This document shows positions 30,522 to 36,311 of a stretch of DNA of 64,000 bases, piece by piece. The position numbers and the translations under genes were made by a program. Numbering within the stretch: position 1 is the stretch's first letter; each line of letters opens with the position of its first letter. The notes under the pieces are model-generated. The model was not told the origin of the DNA and did not search any database. It was given only the letters and a program-made list of their open reading frames with translations. The stretch comes from Calditrichia bacterium. GTDB taxonomy: Bacteria > Calditrichota > Calditrichia > RBG-13-44-9 > J075. The stretch is from contig JBOEGD010000014.1 in the NCBI GenBank assembly GCA_050633245.1, positions 1 through 64,000 on the forward strand, given 5' to 3'.

Positions 30522-30668
30522 AAAGGTTGATCAAAAGAATCACATTGGAGCATTCTCACAATGGAGCAGTTTTTGTGAGCTAGACGGTGTACTCTTTATT
30601 CTTAATTTCTAAGAAAATTTTGAACACTTTCTACATTTCTTTCAAAAGAGAACGACTTCCAGCGTATC

Positions 30669-32000
30669 TTAATAGCGGAATTCATCGCCTTTATGAACCG
30701 CAATGTCATTCGGAAAATAACGGTTATAAATCAAGTCACTAAACTCAAGCGCTTCCTTAGAATATGGATTTGTGCTGAGCTTATAGAAAAAGCTGTCTAT
30801 TAAGTTCGACGCATCTTTCCATGTTTCCGTGCCGTTAACGATGCTTATAAATTCATCATACTGCTTTTCCTGCTTCTTAAATATTCGCTTGATAAAACGC
30901 TTACGCTGCTTAACAGTAATCATTGTATTCAGATCACCAAGGTCAGTGCCCTTCATTTTATTACCAACCACATTTGCAAGATGCTCAGCGGCGGTATATG
31001 ACGGATCGCGCATTGTCATGCCCTTCGTCTCGGCAATAACCGGCAGTTCCTCTTCTTCGAAGGAATCACTATCATCCTCTTCAATAACCTCTTCCGGTTC
31101 AACCTGTTGCGGGACTTGAATTTCTTCTACATGCACAGCCGGCTTATCCTGCTCGATATCTTCGAGCGTCTCAACCGGAATCGGTTTCGGCAGCGGTTGT
31201 TCAACAGGGGTAGGTGCAGGCGTTGGTGTACTAAGTCGTGGGCTCTGACCTGTTCGAAGTAGAGCTTCCAGCTCAGTGAGGGTCAGTTTATCAGCGCCAT
31301 TATTGCCTTCACGTTCTACAAGTTGAGCGAAGTCGCTTAGATTGCGATCACGCAAAATCATACTGAGCATCTGAACGCTCATCTGCCCATTTTCACCTTC
31401 ACTGCCTTCGGAAATAAAATTTCCAATGGTTTTGATGGTCTGAAGAGCCGTCTCGACAGGGTTACGGGAAAAGACCTGCAGGTCGATGCCTTTAATCAAT
31501 TCTTCAAACTGAACCTGCGAAATTTCGCGAAGGTACTTCAGGTTAAAGTATTCAGTAAGCGCATCTTTGTAATACTGAAATTTATCGAAGTATTTGAGCA
31601 TGTCGTATACTTCAATCGTTGTAATAACCTTCTTATCCTTAAACAAAAATTGCGTCAGCGTTTGATGGGGACGGATAAGATAGTTTGCTTCCAGCTTAAT
31701 AGATCTTTCCAACAGTCGATTAAAACGGTTCGGATGAAATGTCGCTGTTTGCTTAAGGACATCAAAGATCTTGTCGACCAACATCTGAATTTCAGGTGCT
31801 TCGTAGTTGAAACGATCGCTATCGCTAAATTTTTCGGACTCTTCACGAAGCCAGATTTCGACTTCCTGATCGAAAAAATGCTTTACTGAATCCGGAATGT
31901 TTCTGGTGAAGATATAAGCCAGAGGAATTTGATCCATTGAAGGCTTAACAACTTCTGTTCGGATCTTCTGAATAATATTTTCAATAATTTGTTCAAGCAT
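30669..32000 (-). CDS. Hypothetical cytoplasmic protein (helical N-domain, acidic/Pro linker, small C-domain)
   Basis: 443-aa ORF with GGAG RBS; low-complexity PTPAPTP/EEDDSDS linker. Confidence 0.75.
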   Translation of the reverse strand: MLEQIIENIIQKIRTEVVKPSMDQIPLAYIFTRNIPDSVKHFFDQEVEIWLREESEKFSDSDRFNYEAPEIQMLVDKIFDVLKQTATFHPNRFNRLLERSIKLEANYLIRPHQTLTQFLFKDKKVITTIEVYDMLKYFDKFQYYKDALTEYFNLKYLREISQVQFEELIKGIDLQVFSRNPVETALQTIKTIGNFISEGSEGENGQMSVQMLSMILRDRNLSDFAQLVEREGNNGADKLTLTELEALLRTGQSPRLSTPTPAPTPVEQPLPKPIPVETLEDIEQDKPAVHVEEIQVPQQVEPEEVIEEDDSDSFEEEELPVIAETKGMTMRDPSYTAAEHLANVVGNKMKGTDLGDLNTMITVKQRKRFIKRIFKKQEKQYDEFISIVNGTETWKDASNLIDSFFYKLSTNPYSKEALEFSDLIYNRYFPNDIAVHKGDEFRY

Positions 32001-32297
32001 ACTGCAAACTCCAAAAATTTATCTGCATTTTCACATTCAGGTCATGCCGCTCCTGAACGTGCAAATATCGTTCCTCCTGAAGAACCTTAGCCACCTCTAT
32101 CCATGAGTGCTTATTGTGAAATAGCGTCATTTCGCATAAAATGTGCCGATTTTCGGGTATAGTTTAGCATAATACCGAAAGCGTGAAAATACATTCAGCA
32201 CAAATTCTGAAATTTAATTTTAAGAAAAGCCCGGCGATGAGATTGCTTGGAATGTGAGAAATGAGTAAAAATTTCTCACATTTTTATCAAAGGTAAA

Positions 32298-33029
32298 TCA
32301 ATCCCGCTGATTCAACATCAGTTGTTGATTTGCTTCCTGAACAGCAGTTTGAACACCAACTAACATGGCTCGCTTTACAATGCTCAGCCCCATGCAAATA
32401 TCTTCAATACGGGGAATACGCGCAAGGTATGGCAGGTGCTGATAACCGATCGATCCGTAGCAGTTTACACCGATCCCCAACTTAGCTGCCCCAAGCACCG
32501 CAGAATGCAGCTTATCTAATGCAACAAGTTCATCATTCGAATCTGCAGCACGGGTAATTTCCGAACAGTCAAACTCTACAAAATCCACGTCGATTCGATT
32601 CAACTGTTTTAGCAGATTTATTTCCGGCATTGCGAAAGCGGCAACGGAAATCTGACTGGCACGAAAATCGGACAGGACGCCCGGCAGGGTTTCCACCAGC
32701 GTATGAGTTGAAAGCGGTGATATAGCAATAGCACCGGATTGCGAGACATCGACAAACGTAACCATATCGGGCTTTATACCAAGCGCAATCTTTACCATTT
32801 GAGGGTCAATTGGAATGTGTAAATTGAGAAAGCTCTTATAAACTTTTCGCAGCGTACGAATATCGCTTTCCTTCAAACCACGGTCAGAATCCGCCAGCGT
32901 TACGGATATCCCGCTTGCGCCGGCAACTTCGGCCAAAATAGCATATTGAACCGGATCAAAGTCTGTATCTTTTAATACGTAGCGGAGAGTTGCAACATCA
33001 TCCACAGAAATCGTTAATCGCTTTACCAA
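32298..33029 (-). CDS. PdxJ (pyridoxine 5'-phosphate synthase)-fold protein, catalytic residues substituted
   Basis: Colinear with PdxJ (VATLR, DPV, AEVAGASGI, KPDMVT, LGIGVN, IPRIEDICMG, RAMLVG), but the N/H/H/R/H/E/H active-site residues are absent; AGGAG RBS + TTG. Confidence 0.8.
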   Translation of the reverse strand: MVKRLTISVDDVATLRYVLKDTDFDPVQYAILAEVAGASGISVTLADSDRGLKESDIRTLRKVYKSFLNLHIPIDPQMVKIALGIKPDMVTFVDVSQSGAIAISPLSTHTLVETLPGVLSDFRASQISVAAFAMPEINLLKQLNRIDVDFVEFDCSEITRAADSNDELVALDKLHSAVLGAAKLGIGVNCYGSIGYQHLPYLARIPRIEDICMGLSIVKRAMLVGVQTAVQEANQQLMLNQRD

Positions 33030-33051
33030 ATCGCTTCTCCTGATATCATCA

Positions 33052-33588
33052 TTAAATCACTTTGTCTTCCCAACGAGCAATATACCACCGCTCATCATCC
33101 CGCAGTACGTATTGGAAAACCACTTCGCCATTAAAAACAGGATCGGCTCCGCCTCCATCGAGGGTCAGCGTGAATGTAAGAGTTTCCTGAACACGGGTTG
33201 CTTGCCCTTCATCATTGCGTTGAAGCGTATCGGAACGTATAGGCTCGTTGAAGGTAATATCCAGCGTGTTAAAAAAACGGAACATTCGTCCCACGACTCT
33301 TAATTCCTGATCGCGTCCCCAATTGATCGGCTCCGGGGGAGACACATTAAAATTGGTACTCACAAAAATAAACGTTGAATCCAGCAGCTCACTATAAACC
33401 AATGAATCTTTAAAGGAATAGGCAAATGCAAAATTGAGTAATACCTCACCCGGGGATTTCTGTTCGGTAAGCAAACTATTTTGCCCGGCATTTTCATCGG
33501 CTAGCGCAGGTGCAAATGGGTTTGCACAGCGAATGACAATAAGAGCCGTAAGCAGCAAACCGATAAAGAGAAAAGAATGCTTTTGCAT
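33052..33588 (-). CDS. Lipoprotein (NTF2-like fold suspected)
   Basis: Lipobox IRC-ANPF; C-terminal WYIARWED. Confidence 0.7.
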   Translation of the reverse strand: MQKHSFLFIGLLLTALIVIRCANPFAPALADENAGQNSLLTEQKSPGEVLLNFAFAYSFKDSLVYSELLDSTFIFVSTNFNVSPPEPINWGRDQELRVVGRMFRFFNTLDITFNEPIRSDTLQRNDEGQATRVQETLTFTLTLDGGGADPVFNGEVVFQYVLRDDERWYIARWEDKVI

Positions 33589-33597
33589 ATCAAGTAC

Positions 33598-34173
33598 TCA
33601 ACGATACTTTGCGCGCAGCGTAGACCAGGTGCTGTCATTACCGCTAGTGGTTTCCAAATCCTGCCAACTCCGCACAAACCAATTTTCCTGGCTGGATTTT
33701 ACGACGCGCAAAATAACGCGCCCCTGATAGCGCTCTACGCGCTGACCGGTGCGCAGTCCGAGTAGAATCTCGTATTGAAAGCGCACCTCTTCCTCATCCT
33801 GAGTTATTGGCGTAAAAACCGGATCCCCATCTTCAGGCAGATTTAAAACCGCACTTTCAACTTGCTCATCCTGAACCAACTGCTGAAAGTAAGCAATTTC
33901 GCGCATCCGATCCCAATTTGAAAGTTCAGAAGCATCGCTACCCGCCCCGAGAAAAGTAAATAAGCTATCGAAACATTGTTCATAAGTTGAGGACAACTGT
34001 ACATCAAAAGCGCTGCGAATTTTTGCTATCAACTGTTCCGGATCTGACTGAGACGTCACCAGATTGTCTCCGGAAGTCGGGGGTTCCGGCATTCGGGTGG
34101 CAAATGGGTTGGTACAGCTACCAAGAAAAATAAGTAAGATGACACAATGTATTCCGGGCGATTTTACGCTCAT
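33598..34173 (-). CDS. Lipoprotein, paralogue of the 33052..33588 protein
   Basis: Lipobox LGSC-TNPF; WFVRSWQD; ATG 34173 preferred. Confidence 0.7.
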   Translation of the reverse strand: MSVKSPGIHCVILLIFLGSCTNPFATRMPEPPTSGDNLVTSQSDPEQLIAKIRSAFDVQLSSTYEQCFDSLFTFLGAGSDASELSNWDRMREIAYFQQLVQDEQVESAVLNLPEDGDPVFTPITQDEEEVRFQYEILLGLRTGQRVERYQGRVILRVVKSSQENWFVRSWQDLETTSGNDSTWSTLRAKYR

Positions 34174-34244
34174 AAATTCAATGTAATTCGTTATTAATTG
34201 CTTTTCCATAAAAAATTCGGCTTTTTATCGGAAAGAAAGAATAA

Positions 34245-36311
<2,067 letters not shown>

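Follow-up and report, generated by a model that had tools for sequence, protein, structure and literature searches.

A PdxJ-fold barrel conserved across Calditrichota without the catalytic residues of pyridoxine 5'-phosphate synthase

Introduction

Pyridoxine 5'-phosphate (PNP) synthase, PdxJ (EC 2.6.99.2; Pfam PF03740; structures 1ho1 and 1m5w), uses two substrates: 3-amino-2-oxopropyl phosphate, which comes via PdxA, and DXP, which comes via Dxs. Its gene serves as the single signature of the DXP-dependent vitamin B6 pathway. In the E. coli enzyme, Arg20 reaches into the site of the neighbouring subunit. The available part of one survey calls pdxJ "well annotated," places Caldithrix abyssi among ten genomes that seemingly have both B6 pathways, and contains no description of a non-catalytic PdxJ (PMC9997740). 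It does describe PdxA2, a paralogue of PdxA that acts in organic-acid catabolism and is hard to annotate, which gives a precedent for a family member of the DXP-dependent pathway with another role (PMC9997740). PdxA2, however, retains its dehydrogenase active site and can still catalyse the PdxA reaction (PMC9997740), whereas in the protein described here the catalytic set is replaced.

That protein is encoded in a 64,000-nt stretch of a Calditrichia genome, which we call the window. It resembles PdxJ in fold, length, and order of secondary structure, and differs from it in its active site and in the B6 genes of its genome; its neighbours are lipoprotein genes. We compared the protein, its genome, and its locus with those of other Calditrichota and with PdxJ-like proteins from other lineages.

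Results and Discussion

A complete PdxJ barrel

The PdxJ-like gene (32298..33029, minus strand) encodes a PdxJ-fold TIM barrel of 243 aa without the PNP-synthase catalytic set. Its frame opens with TTG, has no internal stops, and is preceded by AGGAG 7 nt upstream. An earlier note, made from the window's letters, had described the length and ribosome-binding site as preserved and the frame as free of frameshifts; all of this holds, on the minus strand, which the note had left unstated. The Pfam PdxJ model PF03740 matched with 138.2 bits (E 3e-40; cut-off 24.5) over model positions 1-232 of 234. The AF2 model (mean pLDDT 91.8, pTM 0.90) has eight beta/alpha units, and its top Foldseek matches are PdxJ structures (TM 0.90-0.93; 24-27% identity in structural alignment), so the scaffold is complete, as the note had proposed. 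The full-length match and the fold together place the protein in the PdxJ superfamily. It has no signal peptide.

The next-best structural neighbours were ribulose-5-phosphate 3-epimerase, 3-keto-L-gulonate-6-phosphate decarboxylase, and hexulose-6-phosphate synthase (TM 0.58-0.68, E about 1e-8). These ribulose-phosphate-binding barrels need a metal, act on phosphosugars, and carry acidic residues at their strand ends. Such ends would resemble the acid-rich pocket that we propose below, but identity is only 12-17%, and the likeness would be one of functional analogy, not membership.

ESM Atlas look-ups of the protein gave family-level leads only. A screen in which 8000 candidates, 430-2000 aa long, were scored turned up no fused or longer form, which is weak evidence. 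Promoter and terminator scans returned sites no more numerous than in shuffles.

Loss of the PNP-synthase active site

All six NCBIfam pdxJ equivalog models matched the protein, each under its cut-off (132.7 against 190, 117.1 against 207, 112.7 against 347, 108.4 against 192.75, 95.8 against 331, and 75.5 against 222). Residue-level alignment to the E. coli PdxJ chains 1ho1, 1m5w, and 6rg0 (E about 1e-22) recovered every motif replacement that the earlier note had listed: NIDH to SVDD, ITVHLREDRRH to ISVTLADSDRG, NLE to NLH, the TTEGG region to AISPL, EIHTG to EFDCS, AGHGL to CYGSI, and IGH to MGL.

We scored 15 canonical active-site positions whose conservation across 14 canonical sequences is 0.86-1.00, namely the equivalents of Asn9, Asp11, His12, Arg20, His45, Arg47, His52, Glu72, the TTEGG loop, Glu153, His193, Gly194, Gly215, and His216, with roles that we take to be those of the E. 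coli residues. The window protein keeps four of them (the Asp11, Arg20, Glu153, and Gly215 equivalents), along with many scaffold residues. The other 11 are replaced, among them the equivalents of Glu72, His45, His193, His12, His52, and His216 and the TTEGG loop. The note's wording that essentially all active-site residues had been replaced was therefore slightly too strong, though right for the 11. By NCBIfam cut-offs, by the invariant active-site set, and by the pathway context given below, the protein falls outside the pdxJ equivalog.

The same loss extends across the phylum. No canonical copy occurred among 80 fetched Calditrichota PdxJ-like sequences; Glu was found at the Glu72 position in 0 of 80 copies, and His at the His193 position in 0 of the 77 that cover it. 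Over 77 sequences, conservation was 1.00 for D10, 0.97 for R16, 0.95 for E152, 0.99 for N189, 0.99 for G192, 0.96 for D163, and 1.00 for D210, and Asp163, Asp210, Asn189, and Gly192 form a newly fixed residue set. The most conserved polar residues lie at the C-terminal ends of beta strands 1, 3, 6, 7, and 8, i.e. on the catalytic face. In the window's clade, the 15 ex-catalytic positions scored 0.68 against 0.63 for the remainder, a value that 2271 of 10000 random sets also reached. The loop of the former active site varies among Calditrichota copies, in keeping with a pocket under no more than partial constraint. This loop corresponds to E. coli residues 95-105, as given in the available part of PMC10471632.

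Calditrichota are not alone in this respect, as metagenomes hold many further non-canonical PdxJ-like lineages. Among the best 141 full-length representatives in a representative library, 79 hold at most 8 of the 15 canonical residues. At least one of Glu72, His193, and His45 is lacking in 94 of those representatives; the Arg20 equivalent is nevertheless kept in 83 of these 94 and the Gly215 equivalent in 85. These other non-canonical lineages thus share with Calditrichota the loss of catalytic residues and the retention of the Arg20 and Gly215 equivalents, but the Calditrichota proteins form their own clade, with their own fixed Asp163, Asp210, Asn125, and Asp149-Tyr150 and their own gene neighbourhood.

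Vitamin B6 supply in the genome

The earlier note had advised looking for another pdxJ, pdxA, or pdxST in the genome, which is 97.1% complete. PdxS (364 bits) and PdxT (180 bits) are present and adjacent, and this cell makes PLP via PdxS/PdxT. The genome has no second PdxJ-family gene, no PdxA, and no Dxr; for Dxs, the best score was 90.9, well under the cut-off of 465.95. It does have a mevalonate route, with a mevalonate kinase (255.7 bits) and two HMG-CoA reductases. A pdxH was found over its cut-off (264 bits), a gene that serves salvage too, according to the available part of PMC9997740.

Family f1 shows the same pattern: none of 16 genomes has a Dxs over the cut-off, none of 15 has Dxr, and 1 of 15 has PdxA. 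With PdxA, Dxs, and Dxr missing from the window's genome and this pattern in family f1, neither PdxJ substrate is supplied. In family f8, the PdxJ-like copies retain His45/Arg47, and PdxA-family genes occur in 10/10 genomes and Dxr in 8/10. We also considered the PdxJ-like protein as a stand-in for the PLP-homeostasis protein YggS and rejected this, as YggS is present at 181 bits.

Phylum-wide maintenance and descent

A PdxJ-family gene was found in 82 of 86 Calditrichota species genomes, the same count as for PdxS, and as a full-length open frame in all 53 high-quality genomes. It is typically single-copy: only 2 of the 86 genomes have another match, which in G040 duplicates the same non-canonical copy and in G045 is one half of a frameshifted copy. 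Disrupted copies occur in 2 of the 82 genomes (an in-frame TAA in G020 and the frameshift in G045). The protein is 28-63% identical across the phylum, against near-constant PdxS scores, so it has evolved faster than PdxS.

The gene is nevertheless maintained, as the earlier note had proposed, and its test for neutral decay came out negative. For pairs with amino acid identity of at least 0.91 and a usable dS below 1.5, dN/dS was 0.017-0.116 (10 of the 13 closest pairs). Set beside ligA, the ranges were 0.017-0.093 for the PdxJ-like gene (10 pairs) and 0.016-0.092 for ligA (seven of those pairs), and purifying selection on the PdxJ-like gene is as strong as on ligA. The copies from Calditrichota group in a single clade (SH-like support 96) within a PdxJ-family tree whose deep branches have weak support. 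Judged from this tree, descent within Calditrichota is vertical.

A conserved block with two lipoprotein genes

Immediately upstream of the PdxJ-like gene, a 22-nt spacer (33030..33051, minus strand) that contains the AGGAG separates it from the TAA of the gene for lipoprotein 2 (33052..33588, minus strand; 178 aa). This protein has a signal peptide, the motif Cys-x-Asn-Pro-Phe, and then an NTF2/SnoaL-like domain. Pfam and NCBIfam gave it no match; its alignment is conserved. Its AF2 model (pLDDT 85) consists of three helices followed by four to five long strands, and the best Foldseek matches (E 1e-5 to 1e-4, TMt 0.42-0.75) were to NTF2-like and SnoaL-like proteins and to CaMKII hubs, in keeping with the alpha+beta cone of the NTF2-like/SnoaL-like fold, in which N-terminal helices precede a long curved sheet. 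Lipoprotein 1 (33598..34209, minus strand; 203 aa) is a paralogue, matching the lipoprotein-2 profile in hhalign with probability 98.3% and E 1.9e-14; it was found in 70 of 80 loci.

The order lipoprotein 1, lipoprotein 2, PdxJ-like gene, all on one strand, recurs in 76 of 80 genome loci from eight taxonomic families, with a median spacer of 20 nt before the PdxJ-like gene (at most 50 nt in 49 of the 76), and in 52 of 80 metagenome loci retrieved with lipoprotein 2. The lipoproteins are missing at 2 of 78 informative Calditrichota loci. The association that the earlier note had pointed out is thus well borne out; judging by the layout, the three genes would be co-transcribed. Nine metagenome contigs, unassigned to a taxon, carry the pair with a lower-scoring LIPO2-like gene and no PdxJ-family gene after it, among neighbours that we take from ORF N-termini to be ExbB/ExbD/TonB-like or queD/yhhQ/folE-like. 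Therefore, the link to the lipoproteins may be one of inherited gene order only.

The block's left border is a divergent gene (34284..36311, plus strand) that we take, from its translation and family features, to encode the NAD-dependent DNA ligase LigA; it is 42-66% identical by BLASTP to those of the fetched loci and is conserved as context, not as a functional part. On the other side, 298 nt downstream of the PdxJ-like gene, lies a gene for a 443-aa protein of no known family (30669..32000, minus strand; sub-threshold Pfam DUF1374, 17 bits against a cut-off of 21). Its identity is 57-83% among family-f1 loci, and in other families it does not follow the PdxJ-like gene. Downstream genes vary while the order of lipoprotein and PdxJ-like genes persists, and no cytoplasmic neighbour is conserved across the phylum.

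A repurposed barrel and its alternatives

We consider it probable that this gene is the Calditrichota pdxJ orthologue, inherited vertically throughout the phylum, which lost PNP-synthase chemistry and was retained for a different job. Our best reading of the protein is a putative repurposed barrel, either ligand-binding or catalytic. The DXP-dependent role would have been lost, with PLP supplied by PdxS/PdxT and the barrel kept under selection for another function. Its retained equivalents of Asp11, Arg20, Glu153, and Gly215 on beta8 suggest that a small ligand is still bound. The His/Arg residues with which PdxJ clamps two phosphates and performs acid-base catalysis have given way to Asp, Thr, Gly, and Leu, and Asp163, Asp210, and, in the window's clade, Asp154 are new invariant acidic residues. 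The pocket would thus have shifted from strongly basic to acidic; its charge and geometry are read here from the alignment and the roles of the E. coli residues. Such a pocket would most likely hold one phosphorylated, cationic, or metal-bound ligand, which the protein may convert or sense. Because the gene lies so close behind the two genes for NTF2-like lipoproteins, it may be co-expressed with an envelope function. On the evidence of sequence and gene content, the window protein cannot be a working PNP synthase: with no PdxA, Dxs, or Dxr and no other PdxJ, it has neither a substrate supply nor a canonical hetero-oligomer partner. A hetero-oligomer with canonical PdxJ, along the lines of the hetero-oligomer subunit that the earlier note had entertained, finds no support in a genome with a single PdxJ-family gene, nor among the 80 copies fetched from the phylum, none of them canonical.

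The note had also favoured a non-catalytic role. A true pseudoenzyme, i.e. a structural or regulatory barrel, perhaps a scaffold in homo-oligomeric form or one that acts allosterically on another protein, strikes us as possible, if rather unlikely. It would suit a protein with four of 15 canonical positions, a variable former loop, and ex-catalytic positions no more conserved than average in the window's clade, under strong purifying selection without a recognisable catalytic set. Yet the top conserved polar residues sit on the catalytic face, the canonical partner is missing from the genome and from the fetched copies, no cytoplasmic neighbour recurs across the phylum, and, as weak evidence, no fused or longer form indicates a partner. 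Since conserved polar residues line the catalytic face and a new set is fixed, a new activity would be no less likely than a role without catalysis. We think it improbable that the PdxJ-like protein and the two lipoproteins serve one envelope pathway, for example with the barrel making or modifying a small molecule in the cytoplasm and the lipoproteins binding it outside. Proteins of NTF2-like fold often bind small, hydrophobic molecules, and the gene order, with its short spacers, persists in both the genome and the metagenome loci though downstream genes change. Against this, the compartments differ, as the PdxJ-like protein lacks a signal peptide; the pair occurs without a following PdxJ-family gene in the nine contigs; and the divergent, non-operonic ligA is likewise conserved beside the block, which may be frozen gene order.

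The two remaining alternatives have very little room. That the protein is still a PNP synthase with a different residue set seems highly improbable, although pdxH is present, sources label its relatives "pyridoxine 5'-phosphate synthase," and the family f8 copies with His45/Arg47 come from genomes with PdxA-family genes and mostly with Dxr. PdxA, Dxs, and Dxr are lacking in its own genome, as in family f1, the key residues and TTEGG loop are all replaced, PdxS/PdxT are present, and pdxH serves salvage too (PMC9997740, available part). Scarcely credible is a neutral relic being lost after PdxS/PdxT took over: the two disrupted copies and the faster evolution than PdxS would agree with it, but both dN/dS and the gene's phyletic distribution contradict it, and the clade-specific invariant residues and confidently predicted fold speak against it as well.

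Conclusions

We regard the repurposed Calditrichota protein, tentatively, as a possible branch of a large unrecognised PdxJ-fold radiation that dropped the His/Glu machinery, kept the inter-subunit Arg and the beta8 Gly, and came to sense a phosphorylated or metal-bound metabolite or to act on it by new chemistry. Within this phylum, its gene would have become a housekeeping gene of nearly every member, expressed together with those of two lipoproteins of the envelope, once the DXP-dependent route to B6 and, in most families, DXP itself had been lost.

Our results point to a "pdxJ" in Calditrichota that does not encode a PNP synthase. If so, B6 pathway calls and automatic names for the phylum would be wrong. 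Databases name non-canonical PdxJ-like proteins PNP synthase, and the same misnaming probably affects many other lineages, because 79 of the best 141 representative clusters are non-canonical. The gene would be a natural case of an enzyme scaffold outliving its own pathway, under phylum-wide selection as strong as on DNA ligase. With one cultured species and a small protein that should fold well, it may offer a tractable entry to a new TIM-barrel function.

An intact PdxJ fold with an altered active site

The PdxJ-like gene occupies 32298..33029 on the minus strand, a strand that the earlier note did not give, and encodes 243 aa from a TTG start with no internal stops. AGGAG lies 7 nt 5' of the TTG, and the start is 22 nt past the TAA of the upstream lipoprotein gene. 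The protein matched the Pfam PdxJ model at 138.2 bits (E 3e-40) over model positions 1-232 of 234, as well as all six NCBIfam pdxJ equivalog models, each under its curated cut-off (best 132.7 vs 190). Eight distinct PDB PdxJ chains matched by sequence, including E. coli 1ho1 (E 3.3e-22). An AlphaFold2 model built from 31 close homologues (mean pLDDT 91.8, pTM 0.90) contains the eight beta/alpha units of a TIM barrel, and its top Foldseek matches in the PDB are PdxJ structures (TM 0.90-0.93). The end-to-end Pfam match and the model thus bear out the full barrel and intact frame described in the earlier note, and each motif replacement listed there is visible in alignments to the PDB chains. Its statement that essentially all active-site residues had been replaced was too broad. 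Among 15 canonical positions, which we take to be active-site residues of E. coli PdxJ and which are 0.86-1.00 invariant in 14 canonical sequences, 11 are replaced and four are retained (the equivalents of Asp11, Arg20, Glu153, and Gly215).

A close strain exists in coral-metagenome samples, because contigs of one such run match 27 of 30 bins of window positions 30600-34300 at 95-99% likeness. Within the PdxJ-like gene, three of the four listed differences from those contigs fall at third codon positions.

Distribution and descent

A word-indexed search returned 31 proteins at 47-100% identity to the PdxJ-like protein, followed by a gap down to 36% or less. A pattern scan of species-representative genomes, biased by motifs taken from the window's clade, found 46 loci in three groups: 15 resembling the window's copy, 15 with another non-canonical form (28-35% identity), and 16 canonical PdxJ. 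Both non-canonical groups are mostly titled Calditrichota, Calditrichia, Calditrichaeota, Calditrichaceae, or Caldithrix; the canonical 16 come from records whose titles name other phyla. Because of the motif bias, all 86 Calditrichota genomes were searched, and 82 contained a PdxJ-family match, including all 53 of high quality. The match was single in 79 of the 82; in one genome (G062) it was split over contig ends, in a second (G045) it was broken by a frameshift, and in a third (G040) a single contig carried two matches of equal score, ~12 kb apart and in opposite orientations, seemingly from a duplicated stretch.

We fetched 80 loci from the 82 genomes. All 80 copies lack Glu at the Glu72 position, which holds Arg or His apart from one Lys, one Tyr, and one Met, and none of the 77 copies covering the His193 position has His there. 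His45 is retained in only four of the 80, all from f8, one of eight families (f1-f8; the window belongs to f1). In a FastTree phylogeny of 166 sequences, the Calditrichota copies and nine library representatives formed one clade (SH-like support 96), with weak support for the deeper branches. Scores and identities track taxonomic families within the phylum, as vertical descent would predict.

A profile of 39 Calditrichota sequences matched 4035 of 1.84 billion representatives at E ≤0.001 and 242 at ≤1e-30. Among the best 150 matches, 141 were full length; 47 of these keep at least 13 of the 15 canonical residues and 79 keep eight or fewer (P0044-P0189 range), in a ranking by likeness to the non-canonical profile, whose shares are not those of the PdxJ family overall. 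At least one of Glu72, His193, and His45 is missing from 94 of the 141, of which 83 keep the Arg20 equivalent and 85 the Gly215 equivalent. Arg stands at the Glu72 position in 19 of the best representatives, 16 of them also with Gly at His193. One non-canonical cluster is named by NCBI as "pyridoxine 5'-phosphate synthase [Calditrichota bacterium]." The nearest ESM Atlas clusters, which serve as leads only, bear PdxJ family names from Planctomycetota, Pseudomonadota, and Myxococcota.

Several library proteins fuse a PdxJ domain to an extra N-terminal domain of ~105-155 residues (P0037-P0039, P0074, P0080, P0092, P0126), which in P0037-P0039 is Pfam PF02130. P0074 and P0080 carry the canonical residues and P0092 is intermediate (10/15). 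No such fusion of the Calditrichota type was found among 8000 scored candidates of 430-2000 aa, a weak test.

Selection on the PdxJ-like gene

Of the 13 closest pairs (amino-acid identity at least 0.91), ten had a usable dS (<1.5), and their Nei-Gojobori dN/dS from codon alignments was 0.017-0.116; dS was saturated in the other three. The window's own branch falls outside this set because its nearest genome relative is 64% identical and dS is saturated. In a locus-by-locus control on ten close pairs, the PdxJ-like gene gave 0.017-0.093 and ligA, present in seven of the same ten, gave 0.016-0.092. Neutral decay, which predicts a ratio near 1, was therefore rejected, with values well under 1 and on par with ligA. 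The gene is retained under selection, and the earlier reading of it as maintained stands. Disrupted copies occur in two of the 82 genomes, with an in-frame TAA in G020 (L085) and a frameshift in G045 (L127); either may be a true loss or an artifact of assembly.

Vitamin B6 and isoprenoid pathway context

The earlier note proposed looking for other B6 genes and raised a role as a hetero-oligomer subunit. In the window's genome (59 contigs, 97.1% complete), PdxS (364 bits) and PdxT (180 bits) adjoin each other, and neither a second PdxJ-family gene nor PdxA was found; with no canonical PdxJ to pair with, the hetero-oligomer proposal is not supported. The genome also encodes pdxH (264 bits), an enzyme that serves salvage too, according to passages of a 2023 survey (PMC9997740). 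Searches of the same genome found neither Dxr nor a Dxs over cut-off (best match 90.9 bits vs 465.95). It has mevalonate kinase (255.7 bits) and two HMG-CoA reductases, with the route at C10:131034-135204 and C10:261764-262879 (genome G000). The organism therefore makes isoprenoids via mevalonate and has no evident DXP source. Because neither substrate is supplied and the PdxS/PdxT route is complete, a role as PNP synthase is very unlikely.

Across the phylum, PdxS occurs in 82 of 86 genomes (52 of 53 high-quality ones) and Dxr in 18 (f3 10/17, f8 8/10, and no other family). PdxA-family genes occur in 35 (f1 1/15, f2 0/4, f3 0/17, f4 1/1, f5 21/26, f6 0/10, f7 2/2, f8 10/10). Dxs over cut-off was found in 0 of 16 within f1 and in neither of two f8 genomes checked. 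As an observed gradient, the least-diverged PdxJ-like copies belong to f8, the family with PdxA in all ten genomes and Dxr in eight, and the most diverged, including those of f1, sit in genomes that lost PdxA-family and Dxr genes.

Some Calditrichota keep equivalog-level PdxA despite a non-canonical PdxJ-like gene. The complete f5 genome G006 has PdxA over the equivalog cut-off (G006:C1:3039725-3040693) without Dxs. Two f8 genomes, G041 and G046, have PdxA adjoined only by sub-threshold Dxs-like matches, ~1 kb away (G041:C8:386004-389041; G046:C94:14369-17628). Neither PdxA nor Dxs was found in the f6 genome G030.

Gene neighborhood

Two lipoprotein genes precede the PdxJ-like gene on the minus strand: lipoprotein 1 (203 aa, 33598..34209) and lipoprotein 2 (178 aa, 33052..33588). 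In 76 of 80 loci, the gene immediately 5' of the PdxJ-like gene, in the same orientation, encodes a lipoprotein 2 homologue; of the other four, two are at contig edges and two are real exceptions (G054, G029). The spacer to the PdxJ-like gene has a median of 20 nt (≤50 nt in 49 of 76 loci, ≤150 nt in 63). Lipoprotein 1 is present in 70 of the 80, and ligA is divergent on the far side of the pair. Lipoproteins 1 and 2 are paralogues of each other (98.3% probability in hhalign), both with a mature chain beginning Cys-x-Asn-Pro-Phe, and neither matched a Pfam or NCBIfam family. Lipoprotein 2 has a predicted NTF2/SnoaL-like cone fold (pLDDT 85; Foldseek).

Downstream genes vary by group. In f1 only, a 443-aa protein of no known family always follows just downstream (30669-32000, minus strand, in the window); its two conserved domains flank a Pro/Glu-rich acidic linker, and it is better conserved than the PdxJ-like gene (57-83% identity among f1 loci). 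Clade B loci carry a GH2-like secreted protein and an SMC-like gene, the latter name resting on its N-terminus. The single f3 locus that was inspected has a YjeF-type NAD(P)HX epimerase/dehydratase directly 3' of the PdxJ-like gene (L110:5281-6819), and a C25 peptidase. The YjeF N-terminal domain is linked to B6 genes.

A lipoprotein 2 profile identified 80 metagenome loci, 52 with a PdxJ-like ORF next. No PdxJ gene followed in any of nine with lower-scoring relatives (166-183 bits), at least 1 kb of downstream sequence, and no taxon assigned. There, the lipoprotein genes follow ExbB/ExbD/TonB-like or precede queD/yhhQ/folE-like genes, names that we presume from ORF N-termini and motifs. These other contexts are those of L185, L188, L192, L193, L209, L210, and L196-L198; some such contigs run from an ExbB/ExbD/ExbD/TonB-like cluster through the lipoprotein genes to a ~600-aa secreted protein. 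The cassette is thus typical of Calditrichota, and because none of the nine carries PdxJ, the lipoprotein pair is not tied to PdxJ generally. A lipoprotein-coupled pathway is the least probable of the new roles that we considered for the PdxJ-like protein, and a long shot.

Putative roles of the PdxJ-like protein

Conservation among polar positions is highest at, or immediately after, the C-terminal ends of model strands 1, 3, 6, 7, and 8. Across 77 Calditrichota sequences, conservation is 1.00 at D10 and D210, 0.99 at N189 and G192, 0.97 at R16, 0.96 at D163, 0.95 at E152, and 0.94 at N69 and E209. In the window's clade, His12 became Asp, His45 Thr, Arg47 Ser or Ala, His52 Gly, His193 Gly, His216 Leu, and Glu72 Arg or His, and Asp154 was added. 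Judged from these replacements, a pocket that once served two phosphates and acid-base chemistry has probably become acidic, which would fit a metal, an amine, or a single phosphate gripped by the remaining Arg16 and Arg/His71. Our best estimate, of moderate confidence, is that the protein binds or converts a new small molecule.

A purely non-catalytic role is the next candidate and rather unlikely. It stays alive because the 15 ex-catalytic positions in clade A, the window's own, are unremarkable (0.68 vs a protein average of 0.63; 2271 of 10000 random sets as high), the former active-site loop is variable in the Calditrichota copies, and no invariant lysine was placed at the barrel mouth when positions were assigned visually on the secondary-structure string rather than on model coordinates. 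The E. coli counterpart of that loop, residues 95-105, opens and closes the site, as passages of PMC10471632 describe. The clade A conservation and the variable loop speak against tight constraint on the pocket; in clade B, the same 15 positions do exceed the protein average (0.83 vs 0.69, with 75 of 10000 random sets as high). We place a ligand-binding or catalytic role ahead of a non-catalytic one, and both ahead of coupling to the lipoproteins.

Passages of the 2023 survey treat pdxJ, described as well annotated, as the marker gene for DXP-dependent B6 synthesis. They count Caldithrix abyssi as one of ten genomes apparently with both B6 routes, with the sole comment that the DXP-dependent one "might not be complete"; a non-catalytic PdxJ is not described in those passages (PMC9997740). 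The nearest precedent within the same pathway is PdxA2 (PMC9997740). The term "PdxJ-like" was not found in the literature searched. The loss of the ancestral PNP synthase function is well supported, and the Calditrichota protein is mislabeled as a PNP synthase: it is a PdxJ-fold protein, characteristic of this phylum, that has been repurposed and maintained.
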